This document shows positions 7,703 through 33,114 of a stretch of DNA of 64,000 bases, piece after piece. The stretch is from Candidatus Caldifonticola tengchongensis (lineage in GTDB: Bacteria > Sysuimicrobiota > Sysuimicrobiia > Sysuimicrobiales > Sysuimicrobiaceae), in the NCBI GenBank assembly GCA_031432545.1, contig JAVKGX010000003.1, forward strand, positions 57,861-121,860. Reading direction: 5' to 3'. Below the pieces are notes generated by a model. The model ran no database searches and was not told the origin of the DNA. It was given only the letters and a program-made list of their open reading frames with translations. Positions within the stretch are counted from its first letter, which is position 1; each line of letters starts with the position of its first letter. Made by a program: the position numbers and the translations under genes.

Positions 7703-8374
7703 ATGGCCGAACGCATTCTCGTCGTCGACGATGAGCGACCGATCGCCGAGGCGGTCCGCTTCGCCCTCGAGCGCGAAGGTTATCAGGCGGTGGAAGCGCA
7801 CGACGGGGCCACCGCGCTGGACCTTGCCCGGACCCGGGCGTTCGACCTGATCGTCCTCGACGTCATGCTTCCGGAACTCAGCGGGTTCGAGGTGTGCCGC
7901 ATCCTGCGGCAGGAAAGCGACCTGCCGATCCTGCTCCTGACGGCCAAGGGCGACGAATCCGACCGCGTCGTCGGGCTGGACATCGGTGCGGATGACTACA
8001 TCGTGAAGCCGTTCTCCATGCGCGAGCTGGTAGCGCGGGTGCGGGCCGCCCTCCGGCGTCGCACCCCGGTCCGCGCCGCGCCTCTGACCGTGGGTGATCT
8101 CGTCCTCGACGCCGCGCGCCACGAGGTGCGCCGCGGGGAGTCCACCCTGCCCCTTGCGCCGAAGGAGTACGATCTGCTGGCGGTCCTGATGCAAAACGCC
8201 GGCATCGTGATGAGCCGCGGCCGGCTCCTGCAGAAGGTCTGGGGCTACGACTACACCGGCGACGAGCGCACCGTCGACGTGCACGTCTCCTGGCTGCGCC
8301 GCAAGCTGCGCGAAGCCGGCTCAAGCGTCCGCCTGGACACCGTGCGCGGCGTGGGCTACCGCCTCGAACCGTAG
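7703..8374 (+). CDS. OmpR/PhoB-family two-component response regulator
   Basis: ATG 7703 (MAERILVVDDE) with RBS gagggtcgaaacg. Receiver domain plus winged-helix (VHVSWLRRKL...GVGYRL). The upstream extension of track ORF 7556 is non-homologous. Confidence 0.85.
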   Translation: MAERILVVDDERPIAEAVRFALEREGYQAVEAHDGATALDLARTRAFDLIVLDVMLPELSGFEVCRILRQESDLPILLLTAKGDESDRVVGLDIGADDYIVKPFSMRELVARVRAALRRRTPVRAAPLTVGDLVLDAARHEVRRGESTLPLAPKEYDLLAVLMQNAGIVMSRGRLLQKVWGYDYTGDERTVDVHVSWLRRKLREAGSSVRLDTVRGVGYRLEP

Positions 8375-8380
8375 GGATCC

Positions 8381-9724
8381 ATGACGCCGCGACTGCTCGT
8401 GGGCATCGGCCTGGGCATCGCTGCCATCGGCCTGGCGCTGCCGGCGCTGCGTACGGGTGCACCGTGGGGCGTCGCGGCGCTCTTGGTCGCCGCCGGGGCG
8501 CTGCTGGTCGCCGCCGCCGCGTGGATGACCCGAGTGCTCCATGCCGTGGACCGGGCGAAACGCGGTCTGCAGGCGTTGGGCCTCGGTCAGCCGGCCGAGT
8601 ACCCCGTCGGGGACCTGGATCGTCAGCCCGCGGGTCTGGTGGCCGAGCTGGAGGCCGAGGTCCGGCGCATGGAGGGTGCAGTGCGGGCGGCGCAGCACGA
8701 GCGGGACCGCGTGCGCGCCGTGCTCGACGCGATGGGCGACGGCGTCCTGGTCTTCGACGCGCGACGTCGCCTGGTGCTGGCGAATCGGACGGCCAGGAGC
8801 CTGCTTGATCTCGGGGACCGCGAGCCGGCCGGCAGCACGGCGATGGCCCTGTTCCGCCACCACGGCGTCGATGCGCTGATGGATGCGGTCCAGCGGCAGC
8901 GCGAGACCGTCGAGGTCGAGTGGGAGACCCCGCCGTCAGGCCGGCGGGTCTTTCGGGTCAAAGCGGATCCGGTGCCCGGCGGAGGCGTGGTGCTCGCGGT
9001 CCGCGACGTCACGGAGGCGCGCCGGGCCGACGCCGTCCGTCGCGACTTCGTGGCGAATGTCTCACACGAACTGCGCACACCGCTTGCGTCGGTGCGCGCG
9101 ATGGCCGAAGCGCTCCAGCAGGGAGGGCTCGACGACCCCGCCTTCGCCCGTCGTTTTCTCGATCGGATGGTCGGCGAGATCGAACGGCTGACACGGCTGG
9201 TCAACGACCTTCTCGACCTGTCCACCCTGGAATCGGGGACAGTCAGGCTCCGACCGCAGAGGCTGTGGGCCGCAGACGTCCTGCACGACGTCGCCCAGCG
9301 GTTCTCCGACGCGGCGGCGCGGCGCGGGATCTCCGTCCGGGTGCACGCCGCCCACGACCTGACGGTGACCGCGGATCGCGATCGGCTCGAGCAGGCACTC
9401 GCAAACCTCGTCGATAACGCGGTGAAGTTCGCGGGCGGCACGGTGGAGCTGCGCGCGGAGGCCGGCGACGGCCGGATTTGCTTCGTGGTGGAAGACGACG
9501 GACCGGGGATTCCACCCGAGCACCTGCCCCGGGTCTTCGAGCGGTTCTACCGGGCCGACGCCGCGCGGGCACGAGCGGACGGGGGCGCGGGCCTGGGGCT
9601 GGCGATCGTCAAGCACGTCGTCTCGGCTTCGGGTGGCCGCGTGGACGCCGCCAACCGGCCGGAGGGGGGCGCACGGTTCGTGATCTCGCTGCCGCAGGAG
9701 TTGGGCTCTGCTGACGACAGATGA
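8381..9724 (+). CDS. sensor histidine kinase (2 TM, PAS, HisKA, HATPase_c; PhoR-like architecture)
   Basis: 447 aa. H-box FVANVSHELRTPL, N/G boxes (LVDNAVKF, DDGPGIP, GGAGLGLAIVK). 7 nt downstream of the regulator gene. Confidence 0.85.
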   Translation: MTPRLLVGIGLGIAAIGLALPALRTGAPWGVAALLVAAGALLVAAAAWMTRVLHAVDRAKRGLQALGLGQPAEYPVGDLDRQPAGLVAELEAEVRRMEGAVRAAQHERDRVRAVLDAMGDGVLVFDARRRLVLANRTARSLLDLGDREPAGSTAMALFRHHGVDALMDAVQRQRETVEVEWETPPSGRRVFRVKADPVPGGGVVLAVRDVTEARRADAVRRDFVANVSHELRTPLASVRAMAEALQQGGLDDPAFARRFLDRMVGEIERLTRLVNDLLDLSTLESGTVRLRPQRLWAADVLHDVAQRFSDAAARRGISVRVHAAHDLTVTADRDRLEQALANLVDNAVKFAGGTVELRAEAGDGRICFVVEDDGPGIPPEHLPRVFERFYRADAARARADGGAGLGLAIVKHVVSASGGRVDAANRPEGGARFVISLPQELGSADDR

Positions 9725-25740: not shown

Positions 25741-26697
25741 TTACGGCACCATCAGGTACTGCAGGGTGAACGGCGACACCGCGCGGCCGGGTGCGGTGGG
25801 CCGCGGAGGCCAAGCAGCAAGCCCTACCAGTGCCTGGAGCAACCCGCCGGGCGGATACTCCACGACACGCGCCCGATCCAGGTTCGTCCGCCGGAGGGCC
25901 TCAGCCAAGGCTTGGGGAAACTGCCCCAGGCTGTCCACCAGACCCGCTCGCAGCGCCTGCCGCCCGGTCAAGATGCGCCCGTCGGCGAACTGCAGCACGC
26001 GGGAGCGATCCATGCGGCGGCCCTCGGCGACCACGTCCACGAACCGCTGGTAGATCTCGTCCACGAGCCCGCGGAACAGCGCGGCCTCCTCGGGTGTGAT
26101 GGGGCGGTTGGGGTTGCCCATGTCTTTGAACCGCCCGCTCTTGAACACCACTGCCCGGATGCCGATCTTGCGGTTGAACTCCTCCAGGTTGGGCAGCGCC
26201 ACGATCACGCCGATGCTGCCGGTGATCGTGGACGGATCGGCGACGATGTGATCGGCGGCCGCGGCGACGTAGTAACCGCCCGAGGCCGCGGTCTCGGTCA
26301 TCCGCGCGATCACCGGCTTGCCGGCCCGGCGCAGCGAGGCGACCTTCGCGTGGATCTCGGCGCTTGCGACGACCGATCCACCCGGCGTGTTGAGTTCGAG
26401 GATCACCGCCTTGACCGCTGAGTCGCGCTCGGCGCGGTCGAGGAGCTCGACGATCTGCCGGCTGGAGGCGACCGGCCCGAAGACGGACATGCCGCCCTCG
26501 CGGACGATCGGCCCCGTAATCCGGATCAGCGCGATCTTGTCGGGCCCCTCACCGCTGACGTGACGTTCCTGTGCGGGGCCACCCCCGGCCAACCCCGCGC
26601 CTGCCACCAGCCCCAGGCCCGCGCCCACGACCATCGCAGCTCCCAGAGCCACGAGTGCCAAAACCACTCCGACGACGACCGCCACCGTCTGTCGCAT
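25741..26697 (-). CDS. sppA: signal peptide peptidase SppA (36K type)
   Basis: ClpP/crotonase-like S49 domain (ELNTPGGSVVASAEI..., TAASGGYYVAAAADHI). Start placed at the ATG at 26695-26697 (MRQTVAVVVG TM anchor) with SD GGGGGUGA. The longer track ORF extends to 26772. Confidence 0.85.
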   Translation of the reverse strand: MRQTVAVVVGVVLALVALGAAMVVGAGLGLVAGAGLAGGGPAQERHVSGEGPDKIALIRITGPIVREGGMSVFGPVASSRQIVELLDRAERDSAVKAVILELNTPGGSVVASAEIHAKVASLRRAGKPVIARMTETAASGGYYVAAAADHIVADPSTITGSIGVIVALPNLEEFNRKIGIRAVVFKSGRFKDMGNPNRPITPEEAALFRGLVDEIYQRFVDVVAEGRRMDRSRVLQFADGRILTGRQALRAGLVDSLGQFPQALAEALRRTNLDRARVVEYPPGGLLQALVGLAAWPPRPTAPGRAVSPFTLQYLMVP

Positions 26698-26778
26698 TCC
26701 GTCACCCCCGTCGATGTGACTGCCCGCGATCGATCTTCGTGAATCCCCCTTCGGTTGCCTGTCGGCCTTCACCGAGGT

Positions 26779-26817
26779 TTAACGCCGTGTCAACTGCGCC
26801 TTATCGCGCGGTGTGTA
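26779..26817 (+). promoter_or_regulatory. Pho-box-like 11-bp periodic direct repeats upstream of pstS (first copy)
   Basis: TTAACG(26779) / TCAACT(26790) / TTATCG(26801) / TGTGTA(26812), spaced exactly 11 bp, 38 nt upstream of the pstS ATG. Resembles PhoP/PhoB-type TT(A/T/C)ACA repeat arrays. Confidence 0.5.
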
Positions 26818-26854
26818 GCCTTGAAAGCAAACGGAGCGCAGGAGGCTAGCAAAG

Positions 26855-27994
26855 ATGCATCGCGCAGGTCGAATGCGCAGGTGGGCAGTTGGGGTCGCAT
26901 CGATCGCTGTCGTGGCGCTGGCGTCGGGCGTGGGCGCGCAGGGCCGTCCCGGGGGTACGACAAGCCCGCCGGGCACGATCGTCGTGGACGGCTCGAGCAC
27001 GGTGGCACCGATCACGAGCGCGATCGCCGAAGAGTTCGTCAAGACACCGCAAGGGCGCGGCGTCCGGATCACCGTGGGGGTCAGCGGCACGGGTGGGGGG
27101 TTCAAGAAGTTCTGCGCCGATAGCCCCCAGTCCCGTACCGACATCTCGAATGCGTCGCGGCCGATCCAGGCGACCGAAGACGAAGCGTGCCGTCGTCATC
27201 AAGTGAGCTACACGGAAGTGCCGGTCGGCATCGATGGACTGGCGGTGGTCGTGCACCCACGCAACACCTGGGCGACGTGCCTGACCGCGGGCGAACTGCG
27301 TCGGATTTGGGAGCCGGCGGCGGAACGACAGATCACCACCTGGCGTCAGGTGCGGCGCTCGTTCCCCGACCGCCCCCTGCGCCTGGCCGGGCCCGGCGCA
27401 GACTCAGGGACGTTCGACAGTTTCACGGAGGTGATCGTAGGCAAGGCGAAGTCGAGCCGGGGTGACTACCAGGCGAGCGAGGACGACAACGTCCTCGTGC
27501 AGTTCGTCCAGCGGGACGAGGGCGCGCTGGGGTACTTCGGCTTGGCCTATCTGGAAGAGAATCTGGGGCGGATCAAGGGCGTGGCCATCGATCCCAGCGA
27601 CAAGGTGGACCTCACGAGCGACAGCGAGTGTCAGGGTGTGGGCCCGACGTTCGAGAACGTCCTCGCGGGCCGGTACCGGCCACTCACGCGTCCGCTGTTC
27701 ATCTACGTGAACCGGGTGAGCGCGCAGACCAAGCCCGAGGTGCGCACGTTCGTCAACTACTACATCGGCCCCGACGGCGTCCGCCGCCAGGTCGACGACC
27801 CGCGTACAAGGGGCGCCAAGACGCCCCTGATCCGGGCGGTCGGCTACGTCGAGTTTCCCGCTGAGGTGTACACGCTGGCAGCCCGGTGCTTTGCGATGCT
27901 GCGCGCGGGGACCGCATTCACCCGGGATGGTCGCCCTGCTGGTTCGGCGTCGGTGGGAGACGTGGTGCAGCGGTACCGTCAGCGCTGTCGTTGA
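26855..27994 (+). CDS. pstS: phosphate ABC transporter substrate-binding protein PstS (paralog 1)
   Basis: 379 aa with signal peptide. PstS family ([20 protein letters not shown]). Confidence 0.9.
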
Positions 27995-28008
27995 CGGGCT
28001 GGGGCGCG

Positions 28009-28045
28009 GGTGGGAGGTCCCCTTGAGCCTCCCACCTTTCGGCTT
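28009..28045 (+). terminator. hairpin (ggtgggagg / cctcccacc, 10-nt loop) plus TTTCGGCTT after pstS paralog 1
   Basis: Perfect 9-bp GC-rich stem 28009-28036 followed by a U-rich tract, 15 nt after the pstS stop. Confidence 0.5.
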
Positions 28046-28054
28046 AGCCGTTTC

Positions 28055-28082
28055 TTAACGGTTCCTTATGGTGTTCCCAACG
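28055..28082 (+). promoter_or_regulatory. Pho-box-like 11-bp periodic direct repeats upstream of pstS (second copy)
   Basis: TTAACG(28055) / TTATGG(28066) / CCAACG(28077), the same periodicity and core as the site at 26779-26817. Confidence 0.45.
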
Positions 28083-28095
28083 ACCTCGTGGAACC

Positions 28096-29238
28096 GTGGG
28101 TGTCGTGCGACTCGCCGTGCTGGCGCTCGTGCTCGCTGTGGCAGGCTGCGGGCCCACGGGGCTCCGCCGCGCCGCTCCGGCCGACGTGCCGCCAGGGGGG
28201 ACCGCGAGCCCGCCGGGGACCATTGTGATCGATGGGTCCAGCACGGTGGCGCCGCTGACGGGTGCGGTCGCCGAGGAGTTCCGCAAGACCTCGCAGGGTC
28301 GCGACGTGCGGGTGACGGTCGGCGTCAGCGGCACGGGCGGAGGGTTCAAGAAGTTCTGCGCGGCCAGCGCGACGTCGCGCACCGACTTCCAGGGAGCCTC
28401 TCGGCCGATTCGCGCGGAGGAAGACGAAGCGTGTCGCCGAAACCAGGTGGCCTACATCGAGATCCCCGTCGCGATCGACGGCCTGGCCGTGGTGGTCCAC
28501 CCGCAGAACACGTGGGCGCGCTGCCTTACGGTGGGCGAACTTAGACGGATCTGGGAGCCGGGCGCTGAGGGACGCGTGACGAGCTGGAAGCAGGTACGGC
28601 GCACGTTCCCCGATCGACCCCTGCGGCTGGCAGGCCCGGGCGCAGATTCCGGCACGTTCGACTCGTTCACCGAGATCGTCGTCGGCACCGCGAAGGCGAG
28701 CCGGGGCGACTACCAGGCGAGCGAGGACGACAACGTCATCGTGCAGTTTGTGCAGCGGGACGTCGGGGCCCTCGGGTACTTCGGCCTGGCATACCTCGAG
28801 GAAAACGTGGGTCGTGTGAAAGGGGTGGCGATCGATCCCGCCGATGAGGTGGACCTGGCTTCCGACGCCGACTGCCGGGGCGTGGAGCCCACGTTCGACG
28901 CCATCCTCTCTGGCCGGTACCGGCCGCTGACGCGTCCTTTGTTCCTCTACGCCAACCGAGTCAGCGCGCAGATCAAGCCCGAGGTCGGGGAGTTCGTCGA
29001 CTACTACATCGGCCCCGATGGCCTGCGCGCCCGGGTTCCCGATCCCAGAAGCCCTGCGTCGGAGACGAAGCTGGTGAGGGCGGTCGGCTACGTGGAGTTC
29101 CCAGACGAGATCTACGACCTGGGACGGAGGTGCTTCGACGCAGGGGTCGTCGGCACTGCGTTCCAGGATCGAGGCCAACCGGCGGGCTCGGCGACCGTCG
29201 GCGATGTGGTCCGCGAGTACCGGCGACGCTGCCGATGA
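28096..29238 (+). CDS. pstS: phosphate ABC transporter substrate-binding protein PstS (paralog 2, lipoprotein)
   Basis: About 70-75% identical to the upstream copy. Lipobox LAVAGCG. GTG 28096; GTG 28105 ([15 protein letters not shown]) is an alternative start. Confidence 0.88.
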
Positions 29239-29281
29239 GGGTTGCCGCCCCGGAGAGCGTGATTTCGTGGCTTCGGTTCCC

Positions 29282-30271
29282 ATGACCCGGAAGAAGCGGC
29301 GCGTCGGCGAGCGTCTGATCGAGTCGGGTCTCGCCGTGTGCGGATTGTGGTCGATCCTCATCACCCTGAGCATCGTCGGTGTGCTGTTGTTCGAGACGGT
29401 TGCGTTCTTCCGCTTGCCCATCGAAGCCACCAACCCCGAGATCGTCTCCCGCCGTGCCGATCTGCAGCGATTCGCCGAGGCGCGTCCGGACCTCGTAGGC
29501 CGACCGCTCGCTTTGGTCCGGGAGTTCTTCACAGAGACCACCTGGAGCCCGCTGTTCAGCAACAAGCGGTTCGGGATCCTGCCGCTGGTGGCGGGTACGG
29601 TGCTAACGAGTTTGATCGCGCTGCTGGTTGCGGTCCCGATCGGGCTGCTGGCGGCGACCTATCTCAGCGAGTTCGCGTCCGCGCGCACGCGAGCCCGGGT
29701 CAAGCCGGTTCTGGAGATCCTCGCCGGCGTTCCGACGATCGTATACGGGTACTTCGCGCTGACGTTCGTGACGCCCCTGCTGCAGGACTACGTCTTCGGG
29801 CAGGCGATGGCCGGGCAGAACGCGCTGTCCGCCGGTCTGGTGATGGGCGTGATGATCCTGCCCCTGGTGGCTTCGCTCAGCGAAGACGTGATGCGGGCGG
29901 TGCCTGTCGACCTGCGACATGGTGCCTACGCACTGGGTGCGACCCGCATGGAGGTGGCGGTGCGCGTCGTGCTGCCGGCCGCGCTGTCCGGCATCGCCGC
30001 GGCGTGCATCCTGGCACTGTCGAGGGCGGTGGGCGAGACGATGATCGTCGCGCTGGCCGCCGGGCAGACGCCCAACTGGACGTTCAATCCCTTGGAGACC
30101 GTGTCGACGATCACCGCATTCATCGTCCAGGTGAGCCTGGGCGACACGCCCTACGGGTCGGTTGAGTACCGCACGCTGTTCGCGGTCGGGATGGTGCTGT
30201 TCCTGATGACCCTGGCGATGAACATCGTCAGCTATCGTATCGTGCGGCGCTTCCAGGAGGTGTACCTGTGA
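29282..30271 (+). CDS. pstC: phosphate ABC transporter permease PstC
   Basis: ATG 29282 ([12 protein letters not shown]). Multi-TM with the EAA-type loop ([18 protein letters not shown]). Confidence 0.88.
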
Positions 30272-31155
30272 GTGTCGTCGCGGCCGTCGGAGACGATGCG
30301 CTGGCCGCGCGTCTGCGTCGGCGGCAGCACGTGGCCAGGCTGTTCGTGGCCAGCTGCCAGGCTGCGACGCTGTTCGGCCTCCTGTTCTTGGCGGTGCTGC
30401 TGGTCGACGTGGTGCGGGCCGGGGCTCCTTACGTCCGACCGGAGCTGGTCACCAACTTCCCGTCGCGCTTCCCAGATCGTGCCGGATACCTGAGCGCGTT
30501 GGTCGGCACGGTGTACGTGGCCGGACTCATGGCGGTGCTGACATTCCCGGTGGCGATCGCCGCCGCGGTCTACCTCGTGGAGTACGCGCCGCGCGGCCGC
30601 CTCAGCACGCTCCTCCAGATCAACATCGCCAACTTGGCGGGGGTGCCCTCGATCATCTACGGGCTGCTGGGCCTGGGCCTGTTCGTGGAGTTCCTCAGGA
30701 TGGGCAAGAGCGTGATGGCGGGAGCACTTACGCTGGGGCTGCTGGTGCTGCCGATGGCGATGATCGCGTCGCGCGAGGCGATCGCCAGCGTCCCGTACTC
30801 GATGCGGGAGGCCGCCTACGCGCTCGGGGCCACGCGGTGGCAGGTGATCCGGCACCACGTCCTGCCCTACGCGATGCCCGGCATCCTCACCGGCACGATC
30901 CTGTCGCTGTCGCGGGCGGTGGGCGAGACCGCGCCGCTCATCATGCTCGGCGCCCTCCAGTACGTGCCGTTCCTACCGGACAGCGTATGGGACTTCTTCA
31001 CCGTGCTTCCGATTCAGATCTTCAACTACGTCTCGCTGCCGCAGCCGGAGTTTCGCCGGGTCGCGGCAGCGGGCATCATCCTGCTGCTGGCCATCCTGCT
31101 GACGCTGAACGCCGCAGCCATTTGGCTGCGCAATCGGTCACAAGTCCGCTGGTGA
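30268..31155 (+). CDS. pstA: phosphate ABC transporter permease PstA
   Basis: GTG 30268 overlaps the pstC stop. Multi-TM; [18 protein letters not shown]. Confidence 0.88.
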
Positions 31156-31163
31156 GGGAGACG

Positions 31164-31982
31164 ATGCGACAAGCCGTGGGCGTCCGTCCCAGCCTCGAGG
31201 TCGTGCACAGGGCACCGACGGTAACCGAGCCGGTGCTGCAGGTGCGTGACCTCCGTCTGTGGTATGGGGATGTCTTGGCGCTGCGGGGCGTGACGCTCGA
31301 CATCTCGTCGCAGCGCATCACAGCCATCATCGGACCGTCCGGTTGCGGCAAGAGCACCCTGGTCCGCTCTCTGAACCGAATGAATGACCTCATCCCGGGA
31401 GTCCGGATCGCGGGTACCGTGCTGTTCCGGGGACAAGACATCTACGCCGGGGACGTCGACCCCGTCGAAGTGCGTGTCCGGATCGGCATGGTGTTCCAGA
31501 AGCCCAACCCGTTTCCCAAGTCGATCTACGAGAACGTGGCGTTCGGGTTGCGTCTGCACAGCCGGCTGTCCCGCCGTGAACTCGACGAACGCGTGGAGCG
31601 GGCGCTGCGGAACGCCGCCCTGTGGGACGAGGTGAGAGACGTGTTGCACACCAAAGGCGGGTTGGAGCTGTCGGGGGGACAGCAGCAGCGGCTGTGCATC
31701 GCGCGAGCTCTGGCGGTCGAGCCGGAAGTCCTCCTGATGGACGAGCCGTGCTCCGCGCTCGATCCGGTCTCCACGGCGCGCATCGAGGCGCTGATGGAGG
31801 ATCTCAAGAGGCACTACACGATCGTCATCGTGACCCACAACATGCAGCAGGCCGCACGGGTGTCGGACTTCACGGCGTTCTTGCTGAACGGTGAGCTCAT
31901 CGAGTTCGGGGCCACGGATGACATCTTCACCCGGCCGAAGGACAGCCGGACGGAGGACTACATCACTGGCCGGTTCGGGTAG
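31164..31982 (+). CDS. pstB: phosphate ABC transporter ATP-binding protein PstB
   Basis: ATG 31164 with RBS gagggag. Walker [10 protein letters not shown], signature LSGGQQQRL, Walker B LLMDEP. Confidence 0.92.
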
Positions 31983-32011: not shown

Positions 32012-32686
32012 ATGGCGCCCGAGGCCCGGCACATCCGCGAGTCGTACGACGAGGCCCTGCGGTCCCTCGAAGAGGACCTGGTCCGCATGGGCAGCATCGC
32101 CGGCGAGTTGATCCACCGGTCCATCGAAGCACTGAAGAAGCAGGACGTGCAGGAAGCCGAGGCCGTGGTCGCGGAGGACGACCGCGTGGACGCCATGCAC
32201 CTGGACATCGAGCGCCGTGTGGTCAAGCTGCTGGCGACGCAGCAACCGATGGCGCGCGACCTGCGGGTCCTGACGTCGGCGCTGGCCATCTCGATCGATC
32301 TGGAGCGGCTCGCCGACCACGCGGAGGCCATCGCCAAGGCCACCAAGCGGTTGAGCCGGGAACCGCTCCTCAAACCCCTGGTCGACATCCCGTACATGGA
32401 GCAGATCGTACAGGAGATGCTGCAGGATGCGCTGCGGGCGTTCGTACAGCGCGACGCGCAGCTGGCCGAAGCGCTGGCGGCGAAGGACGACACCGTGGAC
32501 GCGTTGCGGTCGCAGGTGTTCCGCGAGTTGCTGACCTACATGGCCGAGGACCCCCGCACGATCTCGCGGGGGCTGGACCTCATCCTGGTCACCCAGAACC
32601 TAGAGCGTGCCGCCGACCACGTGACGAACATCGCCGAGCGCGTGATCTACATGATCACCGGTGAGATGAAGGAGCTGAACGTGTGA
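32012..32686 (+). CDS. phoU: phosphate transport system regulator PhoU
   Basis: 224 aa with two PhoU repeats (E..D..xD motifs). Confidence 0.9.
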   Translation: MAPEARHIRESYDEALRSLEEDLVRMGSIAGELIHRSIEALKKQDVQEAEAVVAEDDRVDAMHLDIERRVVKLLATQQPMARDLRVLTSALAISIDLERLADHAEAIAKATKRLSREPLLKPLVDIPYMEQIVQEMLQDALRAFVQRDAQLAEALAAKDDTVDALRSQVFRELLTYMAEDPRTISRGLDLILVTQNLERAADHVTNIAERVIYMITGEMKELNV

Positions 32687-33114
32687 GGGTGCTGTTCGTG
32701 TGCACCGGGAACTCGGCGCGGTCGCAGATGGCCGAGGGTCTGCTCCGGCATCTTGGGGGCGGGCGGATTGAGGTCTACAGCGCCGGCACCGAACCGAGGG
32801 GGCTGAACCCGTATGCGGTGCGGGCGATGGCCGAGCGTGGGATCGACATCTCCCATCACACGAGCAAAAGCCTGGAACCGTTCCTGGGCCAGAGGTTCGA
32901 CTGGGTGATCACGGTCTGTGACAGGGCGAAGCAATCCTGCCCCACGTTCACCGGTGCGGCCGGACGCATCCACTGGTCGGTCGGCGATCCCGCGGAGGTC
33001 CAAGGATCCGACGAACAAGTACTGTCTGCATTCCGGGCCGTCCGCGACGACCTGGAAGCCCGCATCCGCACGTTCCTTTCGCAGCGTGCACCGGCCGGCA
33101 CACCCTCCAGCTGA
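32683..33114 (+). CDS. arsC: arsenate reductase, thioredoxin-coupled LMW-PTP family (ArsC)
   Basis: P-loop CTGNSARSQMAEG (CX5R) plus a Cys triad (C7, C79, C86: VCDRAKQSCP) matching Bacillus-type ArsC C10/C82/C89 spacing. GTG overlaps the phoU stop (GTGA). Confidence 0.75.
   Translation: MRVLFVCTGNSARSQMAEGLLRHLGGGRIEVYSAGTEPRGLNPYAVRAMAERGIDISHHTSKSLEPFLGQRFDWVITVCDRAKQSCPTFTGAAGRIHWSVGDPAEVQGSDEQVLSAFRAVRDDLEARIRTFLSQRAPAGTPSS

Follow-up and report, generated by a model that had tools for sequence, protein, structure and literature searches.

How is phosphate uptake controlled at a locus that carries two consecutive genes for the phosphate-binding protein PstS? The question is raised by a stretch of 64,000 nucleotides (nt) from the genome of Candidatus Caldifonticola tengchongensis (assembly GCA_031432545.1, contig JAVKGX010000003.1, positions 57,861 to 121,860 of the forward strand), referred to here as the window, in which both genes, pstS1 and pstS2, are preceded by TTAACG-like hexamers repeated every 11 base pairs (bp). 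A preliminary description of this DNA took the repeats for candidate Pho boxes, the operators of PhoP/PhoB-type regulators. Both arrays are probably Pho boxes with the core cTT(A/C)AC that drive the phosphate transport (pst) promoters, most likely when bound by an OmpR/PhoB-family response regulator encoded in the same window. The evidence supports an ordinary Pho-box promoter system, in this case from an uncultured lineage of hot springs.

A PHO box consists of two 11-nt direct-repeat units, with the core CTGTCAT in Escherichia coli and GTTCACC in Streptomyces (PMC4415409). Array 1, upstream of pstS1, comprises four units with the hexamers TTCACC (26768-73), TTAACG (26779-84), TCAACT (26790-95), and TTATCG (26801-06), enough for two regulator dimers. 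Array 2, upstream of pstS2, comprises three to four, namely TTAGCC (28044-49), TTAACG (28055-60), TTATGG (28066-71), and a weak CCAACG (28077-82). Each array directly precedes a gene of the PstS family, in the promoter region where Pho boxes belong. The preliminary description had quoted the last three hexamers of each array and, in front of pstS1, TGTGTA (26812-17) as a fourth unit; all of its coordinates and its exact 11-bp spacing are correct. The arrays themselves stand, but each shifts one unit upstream: TTCACC and TTAGCC had been missed, and the last quoted unit fits poorly in both cases. In a matrix derived from related loci, CCAACG scores -1.2 bits and TGTGTA -5.4 bits, and the latter is better dropped as a box.

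The sole source of this 11-mer weighted matrix is the set of arrays that precede pstS in nine related loci (L001-L009); no window sequence went into it. When three consecutive units are scanned for on both strands of the whole 64 kb, the top four matches all fall within the two arrays (28043-75, 23.9 bits; 26778-810, 19.0; 26767-99, 17.9; 28054-86, 16.1), while the best unrelated match scores 10.0. Array 2 is the best three-unit array of the window, at a score reached by none of 300 dinucleotide shuffles. With four units, array 1 ranks first at 27.2 and array 2 scores 22.7, values that again none of the 300 shuffles attains (mean 9.7, maximum 20.3). Of 2000 separate shuffles of each intergenic region, 3 and 0 attain the observed score. 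The matrix scan of the window returns no box pairs besides the two arrays. Degenerate arrays of this kind are not reported by a generic repeat finder, and TT-run autocorrelation on the pstS1 spacer is uninformative, one unit beginning with TTT and another with TC. A consensus promoter scan finds no TTGACA-17-TATAAT promoter, as expected for activator-dependent promoters in a genome of 69% GC content (the value for the window), and Rfam assigns no RNA family within 26400-28400.

The nine loci used for the matrix are the closest genomic relatives of PstS1 (68-75% identical), each with a single pstS, and come from metagenome-assembled genomes labelled Sysuimicrobiota, Tepidifontimicrobium, Calidihabitans, HR32, or "Armatimonadota". 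All nine carry, upstream of pstS, three to five units of the form cTTnACnnnnn with an 11-bp period. Five further related loci from metagenomes, which took no part in matrix building, complete a set of 14 Sysuimicrobiota/CSP1-3-like loci, and an 11-bp cTTaAC array precedes the single pstS in every one of them. When the distances that separate the starts of TT runs are counted in eight relatives, with no model assumed, lag 11 occurs 19 times and lag 22 occurs 15 times, and no other lag more than three times. Conservation at orthologous promoters also extends to a second place in the operon: ten loci (L002-L008, L081, L082, and L085) have a (c/g)TTAAC-N5-cTTAAC pair in the pstS-pstC spacer, 17-44 nt before pstC.

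The boxes stand in a fixed relation to a -10-like hexamer. Of 20 sites, 17 have a hexamer of the form nAnnnT that begins exactly 9 nt past the last box, and two others (L001 and L009) have it at 10 nt; elsewhere in the range of 4 to 15 nt this form is almost absent. At the upstream sites the hexamers are TAGCCT for pstS1, which starts 9 nt past the last box of array 1, and CACGCT, CAACCT, CACCCT, AAACAT, and GACCAT in the relatives; at the relatives' internal sites they are CAAGGT (four times), AAGCCT, GACCCT, GACGTT, and GAGGCT. The pstS2 site is the sole exception in the relatives' register, where it reads CGACCT (28081-28086, 9 nt after TTATGG) and is the only one of the 20 without an A at position 2. 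A candidate hexamer with that A, AACCGT, lies 9 nt past the weak CCAACG. In E. coli, some 10 bp separate the Pho box from a downstream -10 element TAN3T (PMC1906773). The geometry seen here matches this rule: at the sequence level, the boxes take the place of a -35 element and keep a constant spacing of about 10 bp to the -10, for pstS2 only in the AACCGT register. Arrays in 14 of 14 loci, lag-11 periodicity, and this spacing together bear out the Pho-box reading of the preliminary description.

Downstream of pstS1, the window has the same layout as its relatives, with a hairpin, here followed by the tail GTTTCTT, and then the boxes, except that the next gene is pstS2 instead of pstC. The pstS2 site is best read as the counterpart of the relatives' conserved internal pstS|pstC site, so the second unit would be pstS2-pstCAB-phoU and not pstS2 alone. 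The earlier picture of two independently regulated pstS copies is modified to this extent: the second array is real, but it would serve the larger unit, from a putative promoter. The upstream regions of pstS1 and pstS2 align at 67% identity, mostly through the boxes, which leaves their homology undecided.

A terminator hairpin had been proposed ahead of pstS2, and a strong, GC-rich compound hairpin is indeed present, but a simple terminator scan makes no call on it. Its tail has five T in seven positions and is reached only beyond a bulged outer stem; the structure is terminator-like or may act as a stabiliser of the mRNA 3' end. In the relatives, one or two stable hairpins precede the internal pair (z at or below -2.6 in L002-L005, L007, and L008, six of eight lineages), those of L006 and L082 being weaker. 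The hairpin of L005 terminates in TTTTTT, a run that continues into the first box. Among L002-L007, the first hairpins after pstS (e.g., L002:4066-4103) differ in their stems but have in common a CAAGCCA / AAGCCAAG motif in the loop, which the loop of the window hairpin, CCCCTTGA, lacks.

Internal transcripts may be leaderless, because a candidate pstC start codon follows the -10 hexamer by 6-7 nt in five loci (L002-L005 and L008), and L008 has no other candidate. Spacings in L007 (10 nt) and L082 (27 nt) fit less neatly. For pstS2, the start implied by the NCBI protein, GTG 28105, is 7 nt past AACCGT.

A mechanism along known lines would account for this arrangement. When inorganic phosphate (Pi) is scarce, phosphorylated dimers of a PhoB/PhoP/SphR-type regulator, most likely the one encoded at 7703-8374 and partnered by the PhoR-like kinase of 8381-9724, would bind the 11-bp repeats head-to-tail. 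Each array would take the place of a -35 element, 9 nt upstream of an nAnnnT -10, from where the bound regulator would recruit RNA polymerase in the manner of E. coli PhoB. Transcription of pstS1 would be driven by array 1 from a start predicted at about 26828, which leaves some 26 nt of leader, including a Shine-Dalgarno sequence, and the hairpin after pstS1 would end or stabilise most of the pstS1 transcript. Array 2, which reaches from the 3' arm of the hairpin across its T-rich tail, would then re-initiate Pi-dependent transcription of pstS2-pstC-pstA-pstB-phoU, in a transcript that is probably leaderless, or nearly so, and starts at GTG 28105. A stronger version, which we regard only as a tentative possibility, is that a compact terminator-promoter module splits the pst operon: the hairpin would end the pstS message, and the Pho-box pair would launch a Pi-inducible leaderless transcript from the start codon of the next gene, which is pstC in the relatives and the lipoprotein paralogue pstS2 here. 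If so, a single regulator would set the levels of binding protein and permease independently.

The two arrays head a phosphate-transport cluster identified by gene calls and family profile search; its genes and the other features are collected in the table below. Divergent to pstS1 lies a gene for an S49 peptidase (sppA, probable start ATG at 26698), and array 1 occupies the intergenic region between the two. Since TTAAC is nearly palindromic, a minus-strand reading of array 1 (26773-26794) also yields a box pair, GTTGACACGGC GTTAAACCTCG (14.3 bits), which faces the peptidase gene. At the pstS2-pstC junction (region 29204-29282), the longest open reading frame (ORF) of pstC overlaps the end of pstS2. 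GTG 29267 is the probable true start, because it gives the N-terminus common to the relatives (R/K-rich …ERW/L) and has GGAGAG 9 nt upstream. With this start the pstS2-pstC junction measures about 28 nt, and the matrix scan finds no boxes in it. Right after phoU follows a gene of the low-molecular-weight phosphotyrosine-phosphatase/ArsC-like family (32683-33114).

Coordinates of the features discussed, as positions in the window (aa, amino acids)
Feature	Position	Strand	Remarks
OmpR/PhoB-family response regulator	7703-8374	+	PhoB TIGR02154, 249 bits (cut-off 296); MtrA, 244 bits
PhoR-like histidine kinase	8381-9724	+	PnpS, 299 bits (cut-off 400); PhoR TIGR02966, 284 bits (cut-off 334)
Pho-box array 1	26767-26810	+	Four 11-bp units: CTTCACCGAGG / TTTAACGCCGT / GTCAACTGCGC / CTTATCGCGCG
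Putative (extended) -10 of the pstS1 promoter	26812-26821	+	TGTG followed by TAGCCT (26816-26821); contains TGTGTA; predicted
Shine-Dalgarno sequence of pstS1	26840-26845	+	AGGAGG, 9 nt before the pstS1 ATG; read in the sequence
pstS1, phosphate-binding protein	26855-27994	+	TIGR02136, 250 bits, above cut-off; NCBI protein likewise 379 aa
GC-rich compound hairpin after pstS1	27997-28049	+	-39.7 kcal/mol, z -3.6; tail GTTTCTT at 28050-28056
Pho-box array 2	28043-28086	+	CTTAGCCGTTT (in the 3' arm of the hairpin) / CTTAACGGTTC / CTTATGGTGTT / CCCAACGACCT (weak)
Candidate -10 of the internal promoter	28092-28097	+	AACCGT; 9 nt past CCAACG, 7 nt before GTG 28105; predicted
pstS2	28105-29238	+	PstS family; longest ORF from GTG 28096; NCBI protein of 377 aa implies GTG 28105
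pstC	29267-30271	+	TIGR02138, 256 bits; longest ORF from ATG 29204
pstA	30268-31155	+	TIGR00974, 260 bits
pstB	31152-31982	+	TIGR00972, 395 bits; start codon provisional
phoU	32012-32686	+	TIGR02135, 214 bits

PstS1 and PstS2 are paralogues with 75% identity. PstS1 has a signal peptide of the signal-peptidase-I type, as does the single PstS of the relatives, and PstS2 carries the lipoprotein box LAVAGC, so the two are probably a soluble and a membrane-anchored form. In scans of genome contigs, metagenome contigs, and a protein database, no sequence matches PstS2 at an identity between 73% and 99%, and none of the relatives has two pstS genes. In a neighbour-joining tree of PstS, the relatives form one clade that excludes both window copies in 300 of 300 bootstraps, and PstS1 and PstS2 are sisters in only 116 of 300. 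The duplication is old, with tandem duplication or loss in the relatives as candidate origins. Because the window copies branch outside all relatives, the source lineage looks like a deep branch, and the label 'Armatimonadota bacterium', which NCBI attaches to the window-identical proteins, may be outdated. The nearest relatives of both PstS and the regulator are hot-spring metagenome-assembled genomes of the Sysuimicrobiota/CSP1-3/GAL15 type.

The candidate regulator and its kinase are the only such pair in the window and lie 18 kb from the pst genes. The PhoP/PhoR-like architecture ascribed to them in the preliminary description is confirmed by Pfam domains and by the N-terminal sequence of the kinase: the regulator consists of a receiver and a winged helix, and the kinase of two N-terminal membrane helices with a short loop, followed by PAS, HisKA, and HATPase domains. 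Their top-ranking families are PhoB and PnpS/PhoR, although at scores below the cut-offs. The best match of the regulator among solved structures is RegX3 of Mycobacterium tuberculosis, the mycobacterial phosphate regulator, with MtrA next.

Genomic context links this pair to phosphate transport. Orthologues of the regulator occur across the databases of the group at 71-87% identity, and the four contexts compared all share the gene order upp, dCMP deaminase, regulator, kinase. At least eight Chloroflexota/Anaerolineae loci have the order regulator-kinase-pstS, with the pair immediately upstream of pstS (43-53% and 35-40% identity). The regulator of L164 is 75% identical, and here a second pstSCAB operon, with a different type of PstS, separates the dCMP deaminase gene from the regulator-kinase pair (L164:1943-5946); the best array of that locus (1943-1986, four units, 22.9 bits) precedes this operon. 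The inserted segment also includes, after pstB, a fragment of a low-molecular-weight phosphatase gene (L164:5710-5946) of the same family as the gene that follows phoU in the window, which suggests a recurrent association of this family with pst genes. The two proteins are likely the cognate Pho pair, as had been proposed: linkage to pst genes elsewhere makes this plausible, but their family scores fall short of the cut-offs and they have no box of their own.

Several observations weigh against the overall interpretation. Regulator and kinase remain below the NCBIfam cut-offs for PhoB and PhoR even though these families rank top, and for the regulator MtrA scores nearly as high as PhoB (244 and 249 bits). 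The regulator gene is not preceded by a box, either in the window or in L161-L163, and there is no sign of autoregulation; nor is there a further candidate Pho-regulon gene among the annotated genes of the window. At the pstS2 site, the relatives' register places CGACCT, without the key A, at the -10, and the alternative register depends on CCAACG with its negative score. The -10 hexamers of L005 and L008 were placed on the post hoc choice to count a degenerate fourth unit as the final box. Finally, Shine-Dalgarno-like sequences lie between the internal boxes and pstC in some relatives; under the proposed mechanism they would serve read-through transcripts only.

Three other explanations were weighed. 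That the periodic hexamers arise by chance in AT-richer intergenic DNA, or reflect helical-phase bending with no specific binding, is extremely improbable. The motif is low in information, essentially cTT followed by A/C-A-C, and escapes a generic repeat finder, yet the per-region and whole-window shuffles described above almost never or never reach the observed scores (3/2000 and 0/2000; 0/300 for four units), and 14 related loci with diverged flanks keep the arrays in the same position. The boxes could instead be operators for another winged-helix regulator, and here L001 offers a concrete candidate: directly upstream of its pstS array, a gene on the plus strand (L001:1781-2740) encodes a fusion of PhoU_div/DUF47 with an OmpR-type winged helix (Trans_reg_C) and lacks a receiver, so that the product could be a one-component phosphate regulator. 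Upstream of pstS, tblastn finds matches confined to the winged helix in L009 (505-780), L083 (1852-2124), and L084 (1838-2107), directly upstream in the last two. Such a protein, or an OmpR-family regulator encoded outside the window, would fit the sub-threshold PhoB score, the near-equal similarity to MtrA, and the missing box of the window regulator. The fusion gene is, however, absent from the window and confined to a clade with slightly different boxes and no internal site, and it is the homologues of the window pair that are linked to pstS in Chloroflexota and that follow a box-preceded pst operon in L164; we therefore regard a different regulator as distinctly unlikely. The fusion clade also differs in its leader, which measures about 170-200 nt before pstS in L001, L009, L083, and L084. 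In the three members with the junction available (L001, L009, and L083) the pstS-pstC junction is short and without boxes, and the L084 locus ends before pstC.

A further explanation, rather unlikely in our judgement, concerns array 2 alone. Array 1 would be the working promoter, and the pstS2 site a decayed or regulatory-only relic, perhaps of the ancestral internal site or of a pstS promoter that was duplicated. Most expression of the pstS2-pstCAB-phoU genes would then come from transcripts that start at the pstS1 promoter and read through the hairpin, whose only role would be to tune how much pstS1 is made relative to the genes downstream. A relic would explain why CGACCT in the conserved register is alone among the 20 sites in lacking the A, why just 13-22 nt without a Shine-Dalgarno sequence separate the last box from the start codon, and why the T-tract GTTTCTT is short and draws no call from the terminator scan; L001, L009, and L083, moreover, manage without an internal site. 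It is harder to reconcile with the highest three-unit score of the window (23.9) being held by the pstS2 site itself, or with the retention of the internal pair and of nAnnnT at 9 nt in six independent lineages of relatives whose spacers vary. The AACCGT register, moreover, offers a hexamer at 9 nt and GTG 28105 7 nt further on, the spacing seen in L002-L004. Pho boxes at both pstS genes, used by the regulator of the window, thus remain the preferred reading.

The practical yield consists of a motif, cTT[A/C]AC with an 11-bp period, a geometry of box, 9 nt, and nAnnnT, and a likely regulator, from which the Pho regulon should become predictable across CSP1-3/Sysuimicrobiota-like genomes. Within a limited search of the literature, this is the first sequence-level description of a Pho operator found for this uncultured group. 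The mechanism is an ordinary one, mildly unusual only in the conserved, putative internal promoter behind a hairpin and in transcripts that are possibly leaderless.

Four known systems come closest to the arrays. Like the targets of E. coli PhoB, they have tandem 11-bp units in lieu of a -35 element, at a short fixed distance from a TAnnnT-like -10, and pstS as a target. They differ in the core (TTAAC instead of TGTCA), in the number of units at the main promoter (four instead of two), and in a distance of 9 nt from the end of the hexamer. Boxes of PhoP in Bacillus subtilis, studied in the Hulett laboratory, reportedly read TT(A/T/C)ACA in repeats about 11 bp apart, and strong PhoP promoters of this organism typically carry four repeats (two dimers). 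The hexamer is thus nearly the same, as is the number of repeats; organism and GC content differ, and the window gives no evidence for the additional in-gene sites that B. subtilis PhoP uses.

Streptomyces PhoP, whose direct-repeat units are 11-nt GTTCACC repeats (PMC2275107, PMC4415409), resembles the present system in its high-GC host, its 11-nt units, and their variable number, and cTTCACC (26767-73) comes close to its core. The dominant core here is TTAAC and not TTCAC, however, and the regulators are similar at the family level only. In Synechocystis, the SphR box is CTTAACCT, an 8-bp repeat present at least three times in tandem, the repeats being joined by 3-bp linkers; in cyanobacteria, the pstS and pstCAB units have also been predicted to have boxes of their own (PMC1906773). 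The cTTAAC core, the 11-bp period, and at least three tandem units upstream of pstS-type genes are common to both systems, and the matrix also detects cyanobacterial pstS upstream regions, e.g., CTTAACCTTTT TTTAACTTGAC. Here, by contrast, the host is an uncultured Sysuimicrobiota-like lineage of 69% GC, unit positions 7-8 and the linker are GC-rich and not conserved, and the internal site falls within a single operon, right behind a hairpin. In loci labelled Chloroflexota, Anaerolineae, Cyanobacteria, and Armatimonadota, too, the matrix picks out TTAAC-type arrays ahead of pstS, and several gammaproteobacterial loci, which act as a built-in control for it, have TGTCAC-type repeats instead. A TTAAC-type box is thus common to pstS loci labelled Cyanobacteria, Chloroflexota, and Armatimonadota, and the core found in the window appears closest to the cyanobacterial CTTAACCT and the Bacillus TT(A/T/C)ACA boxes.

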